A DNA stretch of 44,735 bases from a phage: the sequence record PZ166175.1; one strand, given 5' to 3'. A model generated the notes under the pieces. The model had not been told where the DNA came from and made no database searches. It saw only the letters and a list, made by a program, of their open reading frames with translations. Both the position numbers and the translations under genes were made by a program. Shown piece after piece: positions 2,381-24,598 of this stretch. Every line of letters begins with the position of its first letter. The stretch's first letter is position 1.

Positions 2381-2458
2381 TGGCGCTCCGCACTGGATTC
2401 GAACCAGTAACCTACGACTTAGAAGGTCGTTGCTGCTATCCGATTGAGCTAGCGGAGC
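2381..2458 (-). tRNA. tRNA-Arg (anticodon UCU), with encoded CCA
   Basis: hand-folded cloverleaf: 7-bp acceptor stem GCTCCGC/GCGGAGC, anticodon stem ACGAC/GTCGT with loop CTTCTAA, T-arm ACTGG-TTCGAAT-CCAGT, discriminator G, CCA. Confidence 0.85.
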
Positions 2459-8352: not shown

Positions 8353-9936
8353 ATGTTTGATTTCAACGAAGATAAACTATCTGTTGAACAGGTTATGGCA
8401 ATTGCTGCCGCAGAAAACCTTCCACCTTTGCGCGTCGCCATTAATGCTAATGGATATCGCCAGTCTCAATCATTCTGGAAGGCTCCGGTCGAGATTGATG
8501 CAGCTAATGACAAGTATCCAGTAATCTCACTCGGCAATGATGTTGATGTTGTTGGTAAATTGTCAGCTAACATTGCTCGGAGCGTGCAATTCCCCGAGTC
8601 TTCAGCTTACATGCACTTCCTGGGGTGTATTTCCGCTGCGATGCTAGGCCGCTTTACCGTTGAGTATCACGGAACTCAGCAACCGACCTCGCTTTATGTT
8701 GTGACGAGCCAGCCTCCATCTACAGGTAAATCAGCAATAAACTCACTTTCTATTGCTCCAATGATTGCTGAGACTGAGAGACTGAATGAAGTGCGAAAGC
8801 GCGAGCGCAAAAAGATTATGGCTAAACTATCTGCGTTATCCAAAGAGATGAAGCAGGAAAAATCCCCGTCAGAGATGGCTTCTCTTTTCGAGGAGAAAGA
8901 GGAGTTGGAGGAAAAACTCGAGAAACTATGCGATATCGTTTTCCCGGTTTCAGATACCACACCGGAAGGTCTTGCGCGAATAAACAACCGTCAGGGCAAC
9001 TTTGCAGTAATCTCGGATGAGGCAACGAGTGTAAACTCACTACTTGGCATGACCTATGGTGACGGATCAAAGAAAACGAACAGTGAGCTTGTGCTTAAAG
9101 CATGGGATGCGGGTAACGTATCTATCGCGCGTGCGAACGCAGAAAGCAACATGAGTTTCGTTGCTATGGGTTGTATCTCTGTAATTGCGCAGGATGAGAC
9201 TATTAACGCCATCATGAATGCTGGTGCGCGTGGTATCGGTGTGTCGGAACGTTTTCTTCTTGTACGTGAAAAATCACTCCTGGGAGAACGTGTATTCGTT
9301 GATGAAAATGGTGAATCAACTTACGAGCCAATTGACGGTGGGCTGAAGTCTGACTACTTCCGATTGGTTCACGAAATAATGAATGAGCAAGATGTAAAGT
9401 TGACGGTAAGTAACTCAGCGATGAAATACCTCAACCTAGCGCGTCAGGAAATGGAACCTCACCTTGCTGACGGCGGGAAGTATTCACACACAATGTTGCG
9501 AGGCGCGTTGGGTAAGTTCGATAAGCAGGCAATCAGGATTGCGGCTGTTCTTCACACTGTGCGTAACTGGTTCAACCCAAATGGCGGTAGCCCGCAGAAG
9601 TCCAGGGAGATTGATCTTGACACAATGCAAGAAGCTGTGATTATGTTCCAGGAGTTGAGCAAAACTTATCTGTCATCTGCTAACGCCGCTGGTCACGCTG
9701 GCGACAATGCCGAGATGAATAAGCTGATTGATATTCTGATTAAGCAAGGCAAGAACGGTAAAGGCGTAGTTGGTATTCGTTCATTATATGAAGCGGCTCG
9801 TAAAGTTAAGCCGTTCGAGGCTCAGGCTGGAGTAATGACGAAGATTAAAGATCACCTACTGCCAATGCTTGACGAGAAAAACTACACGTGCCTGATTGGT
9901 GATAAAGTTTACATTAATCCGCGATTGCTGGGGTAA
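8353..9936 (+). CDS. hypothetical 527-aa protein with P-loop-like and DE-box-like motifs
   Basis: ORF track; motifs PPSTGKS and VISDEAT read from the translation; own cassette promoter; no family confidently recognised. Confidence 0.6.
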   Translation: MFDFNEDKLSVEQVMAIAAAENLPPLRVAINANGYRQSQSFWKAPVEIDAANDKYPVISLGNDVDVVGKLSANIARSVQFPESSAYMHFLGCISAAMLGRFTVEYHGTQQPTSLYVVTSQPPSTGKSAINSLSIAPMIAETERLNEVRKRERKKIMAKLSALSKEMKQEKSPSEMASLFEEKEELEEKLEKLCDIVFPVSDTTPEGLARINNRQGNFAVISDEATSVNSLLGMTYGDGSKKTNSELVLKAWDAGNVSIARANAESNMSFVAMGCISVIAQDETINAIMNAGARGIGVSERFLLVREKSLLGERVFVDENGESTYEPIDGGLKSDYFRLVHEIMNEQDVKLTVSNSAMKYLNLARQEMEPHLADGGKYSHTMLRGALGKFDKQAIRIAAVLHTVRNWFNPNGGSPQKSREIDLDTMQEAVIMFQELSKTYLSSANAAGHAGDNAEMNKLIDILIKQGKNGKGVVGIRSLYEAARKVKPFEAQAGVMTKIKDHLLPMLDEKNYTCLIGDKVYINPRLLG

Positions 9937-10275
9937 GTGATGTTTCTGCTCGATATATTTAAGTTCTGCGAGTCGTATTCATACTTTACTCGTCAGCATT
10001 TGGCGCGATTCATATACCAACACAAGGACTCTGAGAGGTTTAGCAAGGCATCTGGTTTATCACATAGAGAGTTTTGCAGCGCTGCTTCAAAGGAGTTTTG
10101 CGCGAAGATGCTTAGTGCGGGTTACATTGATGGTAGGTGCGGTGAGTTTGTTAGCAAGGGGAGTTTAAAGAGGCCATTTGGCTTCAACTTTGAGGCACTT
10201 AGCGGGTATGAGAGCAAGTACATAAAAGAGATGATGAGCATAGGAAAAATGACTGACGACGAGTTATTTAGCTAA
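9937..10275 (+). CDS. hypothetical protein (112 aa)
   Basis: ORF track; start abuts the stop of the 527-aa gene; followed by a terminator. Confidence 0.45.
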   Translation: MMFLLDIFKFCESYSYFTRQHLARFIYQHKDSERFSKASGLSHREFCSAASKEFCAKMLSAGYIDGRCGEFVSKGSLKRPFGFNFEALSGYESKYIKEMMSIGKMTDDELFS

Positions 10276-10281
10276 AAATAT

Positions 10282-10305
10282 AGCCTCCATTAGGAGGCTT
10301 TTTTA
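10282..10305 (+). terminator. rho-independent terminator closing the plus-strand early operon
   Basis: AGCCTCC-atta-GGAGGCT followed by TTTTTT. Confidence 0.6.
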
Positions 10306-10679
10306 CGTCTTAAGATTAATGCCATGAGAGCTAAAACCAGCAGACCCATGGATCCTGTTCCAGCCCACGGAAGTGCTGATGATTCGTTATTGGTAATTTC
10401 AATCTTTTCGGCAGTGATTGTGGATGCCTTAATCGAGTTGTCAGCAGTCTTTTTTCCGCTCGAGCTATCCAGGGAACCTACGCTAGAATCCTTAACGGAA
10501 GCATCGCTGGAGTTGCTGGAGTCTACCTTGTTCGTTAACCCGACACCAACCTTATTGTTCTCTGCGCCAGCTTGAGCGCTAATCTCTGGCTTACTGCCAA
10601 TTAAACCAGTCAGCGCAGATGTTGCCGAACACCCAGATAAAGCTGCGCACATTACTAACGCTGCAATCCACTTAAGCAT
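10290..10679 (-). CDS. unimolecular spanin (putative)
   Basis: N-terminal lipoprotein signal with lipobox LSGC plus C-terminal transmembrane helix LLVLALMALIL; last gene of the lysis cassette. Confidence 0.6.
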   Translation of the reverse strand: MLKWIAALVMCAALSGCSATSALTGLIGSKPEISAQAGAENNKVGVGLTNKVDSSNSSDASVKDSSVGSLDSSSGKKTADNSIKASTITAEKIEITNNESSALPWAGTGSMGLLVLALMALILRRKKAS

Positions 10680-11140
10680 AGCTTAATCTCCTCATTCCGG
10701 CGATTTACCAAACCCTTAACAATAACCTTTTTGCCGTTAACGGTAGCTTTATTCCACATCCCCAAAGCCTTACAACCCTGCTCCACTTTACCCTGGTTAA
10801 TTAATTTAACAGCCGTAGACTTCCTCATCGAAGATCCGCCAACGTTGTAGCTAAAGCTAATTAACGCTGCCCTTGTCTGCTGTGCAATTGGGTAGGTAAC
10901 TGCATCCTGAACATGCTTGGCATGAATCTGGATGTGCTTTTCCAGCAGATTTCTGCACTCCCTGTTGCTGTATGTTTTACCCCAGACCACATCTGGACCG
11001 GTAATACCGGAACACACCGTAGGGATTCCGGCAATGTCCATGTAAGGCTTGTTCTCCACACCCTCAACGAGCTCAATAAGCGGCGCTGCGATGTATATTG
11101 CCGCAGCCGTAGCCGCGCTAATTAGCATCTTTTGCTTCAT
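10655..11140 (-). CDS. endolysin, GH24 lysozyme with N-terminal signal-anchor-release-like segment
   Basis: hydrophobic N-terminus ISAATAAAIYIAAPLI followed by lysozyme-like domain; sits between holin and spanin. Confidence 0.7.
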   Translation of the reverse strand: MKQKMLISAATAAAIYIAAPLIELVEGVENKPYMDIAGIPTVCSGITGPDVVWGKTYSNRECRNLLEKHIQIHAKHVQDAVTYPIAQQTRAALISFSYNVGGSSMRKSTAVKLINQGKVEQGCKALGMWNKATVNGKKVIVKGLVNRRNEEIKLCLSGLQR

Positions 11141-11356
11141 TTACTTGCTCCTTATCTTTATTGCTGTTTTTAAGTCTCCTGATTCAAGAGCGCGCCTAAT
11201 CGCCTGGCTGTCTTTGAACTTCCAGTAAGCTCCCCAGGCCCCAAAAATGATTAGAGCGATAAGGCTGATTATTGCTATAGTCATTTGACCAGTTGCCGCG
11301 CCAGTTACCGCAGCCCCGCCGGTTGATGCCGTAGCGGCGTTGATTACTTCCCTCAT
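11141..11356 (-). CDS. holin (putative, single TMD)
   Basis: ORF track 11141..11434; start moved to MREVIN... after RBS AAGGTGG; TMD MTIAIISLIALIIFGAWGAYW; directly upstream of endolysin. Confidence 0.5.
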   Translation of the reverse strand: MREVINAATASTGGAAVTGAATGQMTIAIISLIALIIFGAWGAYWKFKDSQAIRRALESGDLKTAIKIRSK

Positions 11357-11482
11357 GTGATCCACCTTTATGTATTTGTCAATGTTTAAGTTAGTAAAAG
11401 AATGATACATTAGCCCTGCTAGTAAAAGAAGCATAAAAAAGGGGAGCCAAAAGGCCCCCCGCTTGTAAAGCTATGTTTTAGA

Positions 11483-11662
11483 TGCGCTAGTCTTCGATAA
11501 TAAATTCAACTAACGAACCATCAATCGGCGCTAAAATGTGAGTCATGTCATCGCCGTAAATCTTCCAATATCCATCACCCTGGTACTCTGCATTGTACGG
11601 CTGGTTAACTGTAAATGGCAGTGTCTTGGAGTTGTTCTTGGTGCAATAAATCATTTTAGTCA
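11483..11662 (-). CDS. hypothetical small protein (59 aa)
   Basis: hand translation MTKMIYCTKNNSKTLPF...; RBS AACGAGGAAA. Confidence 0.35.
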
Positions 11663-11689
11663 TTTTGTGTTTCCTCGTTTAGTTAATCT

Positions 11690-11765
11690 CGTTTCGATGT
11701 GGTAATTATGCCGCATTTCTGCGGCATTGGTTAGGCAAAAAGTGCTATTAGCTAAACATTTTAGG
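11690..11765 (-). promoter_or_regulatory. variant early promoter cassette with hairpin TGCCGCAGAAATGCGGCA
   Basis: minus sense: TTTAGCTAATAGCAC, hairpin, CATAATTACCACATCGAAAC. Confidence 0.35.
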
Positions 11766-12884
11766 GCGACAAATGAAGCGGCCAACTTCACCGAATTCTT
11801 TATGGTAGACAATAACTGCCGCTTGACGTTGAGAGCGCCAGCCGCCATTTGCGGAGTACGCGTCAGGACTCCCCAGCTGTCCATGCACCTCATCAATTCC
11901 CAAGTTTGTTTCTGTAATCTTCTGAGAATGCCAGTGGCCACTATGTGTGTAAACATACTCACTTTGACCAAATAACTTACGAAAATCAGTTGCCATAACA
12001 GTTAGTCGAGTATCGGCTTTCCGCATTTGGTGCCCGTGAGTGTATCCAATAAGCGTCTTTCCAAAGCTGGTCATCATCATTGCAGCAGGGCTAACATCAA
12101 CATTTACGCGAGGCTCATCTTCATAAAATGCAGCAAGCGCAGCGCGGAGCCAAACCATTCCAGCCTCGTCGTGATTCCCACTTATTACTTTAATATCAAT
12201 AACTTGATGCTTTTCCATCATTCGAGAAATTGCACGTCGCACTGACCGGATTGCCACATAAACAATTTTTGCGTAACGACTGTCAGAATCTAAGATATGA
12301 CCCGAGGCCGGGGTTTTAGCCTCCAGGGAATCGTAATGTAGGAAATCGCCACCCAATACCAATACAGCATTCTTAGAGTTTGGTGCCTTATCTACAGCGT
12401 AGTCAAAGAACCCATTCATAACCTTCTCTGCTGTTGCTGTGTCGTAGTTTTCGCCACACTCGTGTTTGTGTGCCATTGCTCCAATGTGTAAATCAAAAAC
12501 TGGATACATCGCAAGCGTGTTATCATCAAAGTTAACATTCGGTGATTCGGATGGAATGGCCTTTGGCAAATCAGAGCAGAATGCCTCACGTGCTTGCTGC
12601 ATTAAAACCTCAAGTCGCTCATTGTCTATTGAGGTTTTAACCCAGCGAATCTTCTCGTTGCCTCTCGCGTCAATCAATGTTGAAGTCCCTTTGACCAAAT
12701 AGCCGTCAGGAACCAGCTTCTTAATCCCTGGGTTTCCATGAAGCTCGCCGGATTTTGCCAGCTTACTACGACGCAATTCAACGTTGCGAATGTTCATTCC
12801 GTACTTCTCTGCGATTGCTTTGTTCGTCATGCCATTTGCCAGTTCTTCGCGCAATTGTTCGTTGGTGATTTTTGCAGTTGCCAT
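11748..12884 (-). CDS. calcineurin-like metallophosphoesterase with N-terminal HTH-like segment
   Basis: motifs DLHIG, GGDFLHYD, GNHDE, GHQ, GHWH in canonical order; N-terminal MTNKAIAEKYGMNIRNVELRRSKL resembles an HTH. Confidence 0.65.
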   Translation of the reverse strand: MATAKITNEQLREELANGMTNKAIAEKYGMNIRNVELRRSKLAKSGELHGNPGIKKLVPDGYLVKGTSTLIDARGNEKIRWVKTSIDNERLEVLMQQAREAFCSDLPKAIPSESPNVNFDDNTLAMYPVFDLHIGAMAHKHECGENYDTATAEKVMNGFFDYAVDKAPNSKNAVLVLGGDFLHYDSLEAKTPASGHILDSDSRYAKIVYVAIRSVRRAISRMMEKHQVIDIKVISGNHDEAGMVWLRAALAAFYEDEPRVNVDVSPAAMMMTSFGKTLIGYTHGHQMRKADTRLTVMATDFRKLFGQSEYVYTHSGHWHSQKITETNLGIDEVHGQLGSPDAYSANGGWRSQRQAAVIVYHKEFGEVGRFICRPKMFS

Positions 12885-24367: not shown

Positions 24368-24598
24368 ATGACTAACTTAATTAAATCAGCAATCATTGCC
24401 GCGGCAACAATCATGATGGTAGGTTGTTCTTCTGGCCCTCGCCCTGATGGTTGGTGCGCAACGTCCTCAAACGGCGTGTGCGTAGCTAAATGGAAAGGTG
24501 GCGTAGTTGTTCCGGCTGGTGAAATTGACATTCGCTACGATGGAATTAAAGGCTCCGGTGGCTCCGTTCGTGATTATGGCTCTAAGGAGTGGAATTAA
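24368..24598 (+). CDS. outer-membrane lipoprotein, Cor-like superinfection exclusion candidate
   Basis: ORF track 24248..24598 with start moved to ATG after RBS; signal peptide with lipobox MVGC; 76 aa. Confidence 0.5.

Follow-up and report, generated by a model that had tools for sequence, protein, structure and literature searches.

Gene content and affiliation of the locus

ORF analysis of the minus strand revealed three abutting or overlapping genes at positions 10290-11356 of the window, the whole stretch of 44,735 nucleotides of phage DNA (sequence record PZ166175.1) that was analyzed in this study. The genes follow the order holin, endolysin, spanin. The TAA stop codon of the holin lies directly 5' of the endolysin ATG, and the start of the spanin gene overlaps the 3' end of the endolysin gene by 25 nt. 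Terminator-like hairpins flank the cassette on both sides, and an additional small gene lies beyond the hairpin upstream of the holin. The features of the locus are as follows.

10282..10299, both strands: terminator-like hairpin readable in both directions, located where the spanin and gp10-like genes converge and overlapping the stop codon of the spanin
10290..10679, minus strand: predicted unimolecular spanin (u-spanin), 129 aa (PHROG 1804; homology to T1 gp11 and Rtp; lipobox; transmembrane domain [TMD])
10655..11140, minus strand: predicted SAR-type GH24 endolysin (muramidase), 161 aa (PF00959; PHROG 7; homology to R21 and RrrD)
11141..11356, minus strand: predicted holin, 71 aa (PHROG 2877; homologue of T1 gp13; Shine-Dalgarno [SD] sequence; upstream stop codons in relatives)
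11441..11460, minus strand: intrinsic-terminator-like hairpin with an 8-bp stem (7 GC pairs) followed by TTTTTT
11487..11663, minus strand: DUF7244 protein, 58 aa, T1 gp14 homologue, SH3-like clan (PF23896, E = 4.7e-28)

We interpret 10290-11356, with a probability of about 93%, as the late lysis operon of a T1/Rtp-like siphophage, encoding a holin, a SAR endolysin, and a u-spanin; the gene order, domains, motifs, and homology shown here are the basis of this reading. The original prediction had placed a three-gene lysis cassette at these positions, and all three ORFs were found there on the minus strand. Its assignments of the genes to a holin, a SAR-type GH24 endolysin, and a u-spanin likewise withstood testing by family matches, motifs, and T1 homology. 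Topology was assessed from Kyte-Doolittle (KD) hydropathy, from matches to a PROSITE-type pattern, and from the helices modeled by AlphaFold. Searches of Pfam and NCBIfam matched no model to the holin or the spanin, returning only subthreshold noise (TatA_B_E, Glyco_hyd_101C, and spanin2_3, the last with 20 bits against a cutoff of 80). Because these collections have no model for either protein, the family calls for the holin and the spanin rest on PHROGs and direct comparison.

The window shares 86-91% nucleotide identity with phages A110b, DTL, and Rtp, which places it by sequence in the Drexlerviridae, subfamily Braunvirinae. The original prediction took the rare spanin architecture as support for T1-family affiliation; the affiliation holds, but the u-spanin is not a marker of it. 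Homologues of the spanin occur in 1,080 phage records, and T1gp11-family u-spanins are also found outside the T1 group, in the Autographiviridae podophages Drulisvirus Pone and Stompvirus BF25/12 and, in SpaninDB, in KP34. The affiliation therefore rests on nucleotide identity and synteny rather than on spanin type.

Comparing the last gene with T1 gp11, a check put forward together with the original prediction, gave 37% identity (E = 4e-23), and the whole cassette is syntenic with T1 gp13-gp12-gp11. The two phages share the gene order exonuclease, gp14-like/DUF7244, holin, endolysin, and spanin, followed by convergent gp10-like and gp9 helicase genes. Both have a holin of 71 aa, an identical LSGC lipobox, an E-D-T catalytic triad, and terminators flanking the cassette. 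They differ in the endolysin-spanin overlap (25 nt here versus 1 nt in T1), in spanin length (129 aa here versus 133 aa in T1), and in an HNH endonuclease gene that lies upstream of gp14 in T1 and is absent here. At the sequence level, we consider these differences to be allelic only. The cassette of Rtp (rtp63-65) is nearly identical, and the curated annotation of OzMSK, an 88%-identical phage, reads “holin / SAR endolysin / u-spanin.” The combination of pinholin, SAR endolysin, and u-spanin is the published description of T1-like cassettes (PMC4559738; PMC11447400; PMC13164509).

This is a standard T1-type coliphage module, already well described in the literature; it is a textbook case and raises no new question. 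The main value of the analysis lies in correct annotation, namely, placement in the T1 lineage and the correction of two start sites, those of the spanin (129 aa) and the holin (71 aa). The compact set of pinholin, SAR endolysin, and u-spanin might also find practical use in engineered lysis.

Endolysin and holin

The endolysin matches the Pfam family PF00959 Phage_lysozyme (GH24; E = 6e-36) and the PHROG 7 endolysins (E = 4e-48) and is 44% identical to T1 gp12 (E = 3e-44). Its catalytic triad, E26, D35, and T41 (E-X8-D-X5-T), is invariant in eight homologues. The best relatives with solved structures are RrrD (4zpu) and R21 (3hde/3hdf), with E values of 2e-28 to 5e-27; both align from residue 12 onward, so that the alignment extends into the N-terminal hydrophobic segment. 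This segment, MLISAATAAAIYIAAPLI (residues 5-22), is preceded by K2 and K4, has a mean KD value of 1.98, and consists of 50% Gly, Ala, Ser, and Thr. The prediction that a hydrophobic segment occupies the position of a SAR domain agrees with its hydropathy and its alignment with the SAR region of R21. Cysteines are found only at positions 43, 62, 123, and 155, none of them within residues 1-22, and Asp rather than Cys serves as the second catalytic residue. The hydrophobic segment ends 3 residues ahead of the catalytic Glu26. The sole small-x-small site in the N terminus is I-A-A at 17-19, followed by Pro20; a proline at +1 blocks signal peptidase I.

The hydropathy of the segment is not especially weak: its KD value is close to that of the permanent TMD of the spanin (1.95), and an average of 1.98 across 18 residues falls within the values typical of TMDs and signal peptides in general, as would be expected if the N terminus were cleaved off as a Sec signal peptide or served as a permanent anchor instead of a SAR domain. 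We therefore base the release of the endolysin from the membrane on composition and homology, not on hydropathy. A cleavable peptide or permanent anchor is nevertheless quite improbable, given that the segment aligns with the SAR regions of both R21 and RrrD, that it is 50% Ala, Ser, and Thr, and that the only A-x-A-like site carries the +1 proline. An arrangement of this kind would also distort the active site, which begins so few residues after the segment, and a specialist lysis group annotates the relatives as SAR endolysins. Judged by its sequence, this protein is a predicted SAR endolysin of the type found in phage 21 (R21).

The holin matches the PHROG 2877 family “holin” over profile positions 1-71 of 71 (E = 3e-37) and is 58% identical to T1 gp13 (E = 8e-32). 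An SD sequence, AAGGTGGA, lies 6 nt 5' of the ATG, and the start giving 71 aa is conserved, with an in-frame stop codon located upstream by 5 codons in Rtp, 5 in KLPN1, and 4 in Rogue1. Starts at 11434 or 11410, which would lengthen the holin as in the DTL and OzMSK annotations, were considered and rejected: the extension overlaps the T-run of the terminator, has no good SD sequence, and is interrupted by a stop codon in Rtp, KLPN1, and Rogue1. These comparisons indicate that the correct holin should be 71 aa and that the extended forms of 89-97 aa in public records are wrong or inconsistent.

The holin is composed of a weakly hydrophobic segment rich in Gly, Ala, Ser, and Thr (residues 4-23), a strong TMD (residues 25-44), and a basic C-terminal tail. 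Public annotations of T1-type holins are split between one TMD and two, and the RefSeq record of T1 states that its holin “contains single transmembrane domain.” The protein could thus be a canonical large-hole holin with a single TMD (N-out, C-in), its N-terminal Gly/Ala/Thr-rich stretch being a periplasmic tail. Consistent with that arrangement, only segment 25-44 (KD 2.10) clears the classical hydropathy threshold, segment 4-23 averaging 0.84, and BLASTP detected no similarity between this protein and the S21 pinholin (S21 68, E = 3). However, TMD1 of S21 68, a proven pinholin, is even less hydrophobic (KD 0.64) and similarly rich in small residues (63%, compared with 80% in segment 4-23), while its TMD2 has a KD value of 1.50. 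Furthermore, the holin gene adjoins the gene for a SAR-type endolysin, the genetic partnership expected of a pinholin and one in which large holes are not needed, and specialist annotations name T1-type holins class II pinholins. We regard a large-hole holin as unlikely, though the least unlikely of the alternatives weighed here. By analogy and following the literature, we consider it probable that the protein is a class II pinholin whose partner is the SAR endolysin. It belongs to the T1 gp13 family and lacks homology to S21 68, so “pinholin” here denotes a functional likeness, a protein that would work like S21 68, and not membership in the S21 family.

The unimolecular spanin

The 129-aa product of the last gene consists of a signal peptide (residues 1-16), the lipobox LSGC, a periplasmic domain (residues 18-104), a TMD (residues ~105-123), and a cytoplasmic tail, RRKKAS. 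In MLKWIAALVMCAALSGC, the PROSITE-type pattern recognizes a lipobox at residues 7-17 (ALVMCAALSGC); K3 belongs to the n-region, the h-region has a KD value of 2.3, Cys17 is the lipobox cysteine, and Ser18 occupies +2. In E. coli, a lipidated cysteine not followed by Asp at +2 directs sorting to the outer membrane under the Lol rule. The strongest hydrophobic stretch, WAGTGSMGLLVLALMALIL at residues 105-123 (KD 1.95), immediately precedes the basic tail. Both a lipobox and a C-terminal TMD had been predicted for this protein from the letters of the sequence, and both were recovered. G16, C17, and S18 are invariant in nine homologues that are 38-95% identical to the spanin, as well as in 31 closer homologues, and all nine of the aligned proteins end in a hydrophobic helix and a basic tail.

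The middle of the protein is Ser-rich, and residues 18-104 contain no Cys; periplasmic Cys is reported to be absent from all 58 u-spanins (PMC6139136). The AlphaFold2 model, built from 31 homologues with 75-96% identity, is poor (mean pLDDT 52.9, pTM 0.19) and contains helices only at residues 2-14 and 105-127, of which the latter is the best-scoring part. In this poor model the periplasmic part (pLDDT 42-57) has no confident secondary structure and no beta structure. The T1gp11 family is characterized by a periplasmic domain predicted to consist largely of beta strands, and the SpaninDB entry for the Rtp u-spanin lists 26 beta and 5 helical residues of 86.

The spanin matches the PHROG 1804 family “Rz-like spanin” (E = 3.5e-49). 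Identity amounts to 95% with the u-spanin of Rtp, which SpaninDB (Table 5) lists as a 129-aa member of the T1 family, to 53% with that of Ec_L1, and to 50% with those of Pone and Salmonella phage 36. For membership in the T1gp11 family, SpaninDB (Kongari et al. 2018) requires a match to a member with ≥40% identity across ≥40% of the length. Sequence comparison assigns the spanin to this family through linked members such as Rtp, T1 gp11 itself being only 37-38% identical. The spanin in the RefSeq records of Rtp and DTL is 120 aa; that start appears wrong because the signal peptide is lost, and the protein should be 129 aa, beginning at M1.

T1 gp11 bears the same LSGC lipobox, T1 gene 11 complements the lysis defect of lambda RzRz1, and a pinholin and a SAR endolysin accompany members of the T1gp11 family (PMC6139136). 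A membrane lipoprotein with another role, such as superinfection exclusion, might be imagined at this position, the outer membrane being handled elsewhere or by a hidden two-component spanin: the periplasmic part is of low complexity, Ser-rich, and unstructured in the model, and the phage encodes a second lipoprotein at 24368-24598. Against this stand the homology to a protein that complements RzRz1, the shared position with T1 gp11 as the final gene of the cassette, 3' of the endolysin and facing a convergent gene, and the absence from the cassette of any other lipobox ORF or candidate i-spanin. Such a role is extremely improbable, the least probable of the alternatives considered, and the u-spanin assignment is retained.

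The proposal that one protein replaces a two-component spanin also agreed with the search for a second spanin ORF, embedded or neighboring. Among ORFs of at least 25 aa on both strands of 9900-11800, a relaxed lipobox pattern found only 10290-10679, and no signal peptide was found among minus-strand ORFs of 25 aa or more within the cassette. Two candidates were examined and discarded. A 33-aa ORF at 10857-10958, inside the endolysin, contains CSGC, as a hidden o-spanin might, but has no hydrophobic signal region. The lipoprotein at 24368-24598 was weighed as a possible partner of the spanin, but it is encoded on the opposite strand at a distance of 13 kb, and neither an i-spanin nor a TMD partner accompanies it.

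Flanking hairpins, proposed lysis pathway, and related systems

The hairpin at 11441..11460 lies 85 nt upstream of the holin start, between the cassette and the DUF7244 gene. Hairpins occur at the equivalent position in T1, KLPN1, Rogue1, Ec_L1, Rtp, and OzMSK, with differing stem sequences, so that the position of a terminator between DUF7244 and the holin is conserved in seven Drexlerviridae of five lineages. The hairpin at the 3' end of the spanin has equivalents in T1, Rogue1, and KLPN1. A consensus scan of the minus strand between the upstream terminator and the holin found no sigma-70 promoter. In the relatives, a TAnnAT hexamer is aligned upstream of the holin, with a weak -35 region, so that the element downstream of the terminator is at most weakly promoter-like. 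T1 gp14 belongs to the same Pfam family, PF23896 DUF7244, as the protein encoded upstream of the hairpin, which falls in PHROG 4788, a family with no function assigned. This protein has been proposed as an auxiliary component of the Drexlerviridae lysis module (PMC13164509). It is doubtful, however, that the DUF7244 protein is a fourth lysis factor and that the conserved terminator gates the lysis genes by read-through or antitermination. If it did, the timing of lysis would be set transcriptionally, as by Q and tR' in lambda.

We infer every mechanistic step of lysis from work on T1 gp11, R21, and S21. In the model that emerges, the holin would build up in the inner membrane until timed triggering collapses the proton-motive force, most likely by acting as a pinholin that forms small holes. 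Sec would export the GH24 endolysin, and its N-terminal SAR segment would keep it tethered, in inactive form, to the inner membrane until depolarization lets the segment exit the bilayer. Because that segment is free of Cys and abuts the catalytic Glu26, activation is expected to take the R21 route, in which the freed segment folds back onto the body of the enzyme, rather than the disulfide isomerization route of P1 Lyz. The activated muramidase would then break down the peptidoglycan. The spanin would be lipidated at Cys17 and, since the +2 residue is Ser and not Asp, sorted by Lol to the outer membrane, while its C-terminal helix remains in the inner membrane and the 87 periplasmic residues of the single polypeptide thread through the cell wall. 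After the peptidoglycan has been removed, the spanin may collapse or oligomerize, so that the outer membrane is fused or disrupted and virions are released.

Phage 21 offers parallels for two of the three proteins. R21 (PDB 3HDE/3HDF; E about 1e-27) is a clear homologue of the endolysin, with an aligned hydrophobic N terminus and a Cys-free SAR segment, and E. coli RrrD (4ZPU) is a homologue in the same way; here, a shorter linker joins the SAR segment to the catalytic Glu. S21 68 shares the layout of the holin, a weak segment rich in Gly, Ala, Ser, and Thr followed by a strong TMD and a basic tail, but without detectable homology, and phage 21 has a two-component Rz/Rz1 spanin in place of the u-spanin. 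As with lambda Rz/Rz1, the spanin would carry out the last step of lysis by joining an outer-membrane lipid anchor to an inner-membrane TMD across the periplasm. It differs from Rz/Rz1 in being one polypeptide instead of two, with no embedded ORF, and in lacking the periplasmic Cys needed for disulfide-linked dimers; no coiled-coil helices are predicted (in the poor AlphaFold2 model), and the sequences are not similar.

Autographiviridae podophages of the Klebsiella phage Pone/KP34 group and Dickeya phage BF25/12 encode u-spanins that are homologous to the one described here (39-50% identity), share its GC-S lipobox core and C-terminal TMD, and likewise occur together with a class II holin and a SAR endolysin. 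In those phages, by contrast, the order is spanin, holin, endolysin, the cassette adjoins terminase and tail spike genes, and the endolysins are longer, with an identity of only 28%.

Organization of the lysis cassette

[quoted passage not shown] The three genes abut on the minus strand: the endolysin ATG immediately follows the holin TAA, and the start of the spanin gene overlaps the end of the endolysin gene by 25 nt in a different frame. Terminator-like hairpins flank the cassette on both sides.

Features of the lysis region
11748-12884, exonuclease gene
11487-11663, minus strand, DUF7244 gene, 58 aa, homologue of T1 gp14 (full-length match, E = 4.7e-28)
11441-11460, minus strand, strong intrinsic-terminator-like hairpin between the DUF7244 and holin genes, 85 nt before the holin ATG
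11141-11356, minus strand, holin gene, 71 aa, with AAGGTGGA 6 nt 5' of the ATG
10655-11140, minus strand, endolysin gene, 161 aa
10290-10679, minus strand, spanin gene, 129 aa, with GAGGAG upstream
10282-10299, both strands, bidirectional terminator-like hairpin overlapping the spanin stop codon
9937-10275, convergent, gp10-like gene, next downstream of the spanin gene
8353-9936, gene for a homologue of the gp9 helicase

Searches against PHROGs assigned the holin to phrog_2877 (holin; E = 3e-37, 71/71 profile positions), the endolysin to phrog_7 (endolysin; E = 4e-48), and the spanin to phrog_1804 ("Rz-like spanin"; E = 3.5e-49). In Pfam the endolysin matched PF00959, Phage_lysozyme (GH24), with E = 6e-36, and the holin and spanin had no significant match; an NCBIfam search of the three proteins returned nothing further. 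The comparison with phage T1 proposed earlier found pairwise homologues of gp13 (holin; 58% identity, E = 8e-32), gp12 (endolysin; 44%, E = 3e-44), and gp11 (spanin; 37%, E = 4e-23). In T1 the exonuclease gene (gp16) is followed by an HNH gene, gp14, gp13, gp12, gp11, and the convergent gp10 and gp9, and the window has the same order minus the HNH gene. The cassette is a well-described module.

Holin, endolysin, and spanin

The holin has a single strong transmembrane domain (TMD) at residues 25-44 (Kyte-Doolittle hydropathy [KD], 2.10) and a basic C-terminal tail, preceded by an N-terminal segment (residues 4-23; KD, 0.84) that is 80% Gly/Ala/Ser/Thr. In the phage 21 pinholin S21 68, whose reference sequence matched phage 21 at 100%, the SAR-like TMD1 has a KD of 0.64 with 63% small residues, and TMD2 has a KD of 1.50. 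Because these scores are comparable, the two proteins share a layout of a weak, small-residue-rich segment followed by a TMD, with no detectable homology between them (E = 3). Genome papers call T1-type holins class II pinholins (PMC6139136, PMC11447400, PMC4559738), and the RefSeq note on the T1 holin gives a single TMD. By analogy, the protein is probably a pinholin, which would refine the predicted holin. The Shine-Dalgarno sequence and the in-frame stops that Rtp, KLPN1, and Rogue1 have 4 to 5 codons before it favor the 71-aa start and hence disfavor the 89-aa annotation in OzMSK (locus L001, 1591-1860) and the 97-aa annotation in DTL (locus L011, 367-660), whose N-terminal extensions reach into the terminator.

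The endolysin carries the E-X8-D-X5-T triad (E26, D35, and T41), invariant across eight homologues. Its nearest solved structures, Escherichia coli RrrD (4zpu) and the phage 21 SAR endolysin R21 (3hde, 3hdf; E = 2e-28 to 5e-27), align from residue 12, within the hydrophobic segment that had been predicted at the N terminus. That segment (residues 5-22) is 50% Ala/Ser/Thr, lacks Cys, and is preceded by K2 and K4. Its KD of 1.98 is not in itself "weak," so the main grounds for the predicted SAR assignment are homology, composition, a proline (Pro20) following the sole A-x-A-like site, and the annotation of relatives by specialists. R21 is activated by refolding, and P1 Lyz is held by disulfide caging; since residues 5-22 contain no Cys, analogy points to the R21 mode rather than the P1 Lyz mode.

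In the spanin N terminus, MLKWIAALVMCAALSGC, a basic n-region leads into a hydrophobic core (KD, 2.3) and then the LSGC lipobox, with Ser at +2 of Cys17; LSGC is also the lipobox of wild-type T1 gp11 (PMC6139136). The most hydrophobic stretch, residues 105-123, is followed by RRKKAS. In an AlphaFold model (mean pLDDT, 52.9), the sole helices are those at 2-14 and 105-127, and the residues between them are unmodelled. The 87 residues between signal and TMD contain no Cys and 22% Ser; fully extended to ~30 nm, they would be long enough to span the periplasm. Across nine aligned homologues, which represent two genera of Autographiviridae and five lineages of Drexlerviridae, the conserved features are G16, C17, and S18, an AQxGAxN motif (A35, Q36, G38, and N41 invariant), and a C-terminal hydrophobic helix followed by basic residues. 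Neither of the observations named earlier as refuting the prediction was made: the lipobox and C-terminal TMD claimed for this protein are present, and a scan of 9900-11800 on both strands (ORFs of at least 25 aa, relaxed lipobox) found the spanin gene alone, with no embedded second spanin ORF.

The spanin is 95% identical to its Rtp counterpart, a u-spanin of 129 aa that SpaninDB counts among the 28 members of the T1 family. The gene 11 product of T1 can make good the lysis defect of lambda RzRz1 (PMC6139136), and its proposed action is to fuse the inner and outer membranes after wall removal (PMC6139136; PMC9636201). Rtp rtp65 (locus L004, 3349-3711) and the DTL spanin (L011, 1149-1511) are annotated as 120 aa from Met10, by which the signal peptide is lost. 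OzMSK has ~330 bp extra between its spanin and gp10-like genes (L001, 2712-3063; ~10276-10289 in the window), as does the vB_EcoS-12210I group, judged from the same two-piece match pattern; in OzMSK this stretch includes a 210-nt ORF, and it is absent from the window, Rtp, and DTL. The sole further lipobox ORF that a scan of the 44.7-kb window detected (24368-24598, plus strand, 76 aa) belongs to PHROG 4281 (unknown function), has no C-terminal TMD, and may encode a candidate Cor/Llp-type superinfection-exclusion lipoprotein.

The upstream DUF7244 gene and terminator

Directly upstream of the cassette, the 58-aa DUF7244 protein (SH3-like clan; T1 gp14 is also a member) has neither a signal sequence nor a TMD. 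A 2026 paper (PMC13164509) described it as a standalone SH3-like domain with a proposed auxiliary role in lysis, and reported that 39 of the 42 Tunavirus genomes keep the order exonuclease-SH3-holin-endolysin-spanin. The intervening hairpin has equivalents with differing stem sequences in T1 (locus L003, 6782-6808), Rogue1, KLPN1 (locus L006, 1174-1193), Ec_L1, Rtp, and OzMSK, and holds a conserved position in seven Drexlerviridae, ~75-95 nt before the start of the holin gene (alignment A4). KLPN1 retains it with the DUF7244 gene absent from that position. This strong, conserved terminator suggests that the three lysis genes form a transcription unit of their own. Transcription may reach them by terminator read-through or from a weak promoter: a TAnnAT hexamer is aligned across relatives downstream of the hairpin, with no good -35 element seen for it. 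That DUF7244 is a fourth lysis factor and the terminator gates lysis gene expression is an improbable combination.

Affiliation and the diagnostic value of the spanin

The 1.3-kb cassette region shares 88-92% nucleotide identity with the Braunvirinae coliphages "A110b," DTL, BEK1-1, CEB_EC3a, and Rtp, and both window halves, searched separately, gave a similar picture (86-90%). Given these identities and the taxonomy of Rtp (Drexlerviridae; Braunvirinae; Rtpvirus), DTL (Loudonvirus), and the vB_EcoS-12210I group (Veterinaerplatzvirus), the window is assigned by sequence to a Braunvirinae phage, in the family Drexlerviridae shared with T1.

The T1-family affiliation originally drawn from the rare spanin architecture thus holds on nucleotide identity and synteny; the u-spanin by itself does not mark it. 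A 2018 survey that covered 677 phages of Gram-negative hosts found u-spanins in 58, and 28 of these were of the T1 family (PMC6139136). Homologues of this spanin were found in 1,080 of the 50,697 records of the present phage collection, more than half of them Klebsiella phages. Among them are the Autographiviridae podophages Pone and BF25/12, and SpaninDB lists related u-spanins in KP34 and NTUH-K2044-K1-1, of the same group, so the u-spanin is uncommon yet not diagnostic of the T1 family. In Pone and BF25/12, the two loci examined, the order is spanin, holin, SAR endolysin, unlike that of the window.

No genome in the collection searched reached species-level nucleotide identity. The best match, MG065688.1, is labelled "Campylobacter phage A110b," and a close relative, PP134917.1, "Pseudomonas phage PsgS01F," unexpected host labels for sequences ~90% identical to Braunvirinae coliphages. 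The window also carries a single tRNA gene, tRNA-Arg (anticodon TCT; 2381-2458, minus strand), and a tRNA-Arg is annotated in related Veterinaerplatzvirus records as well.
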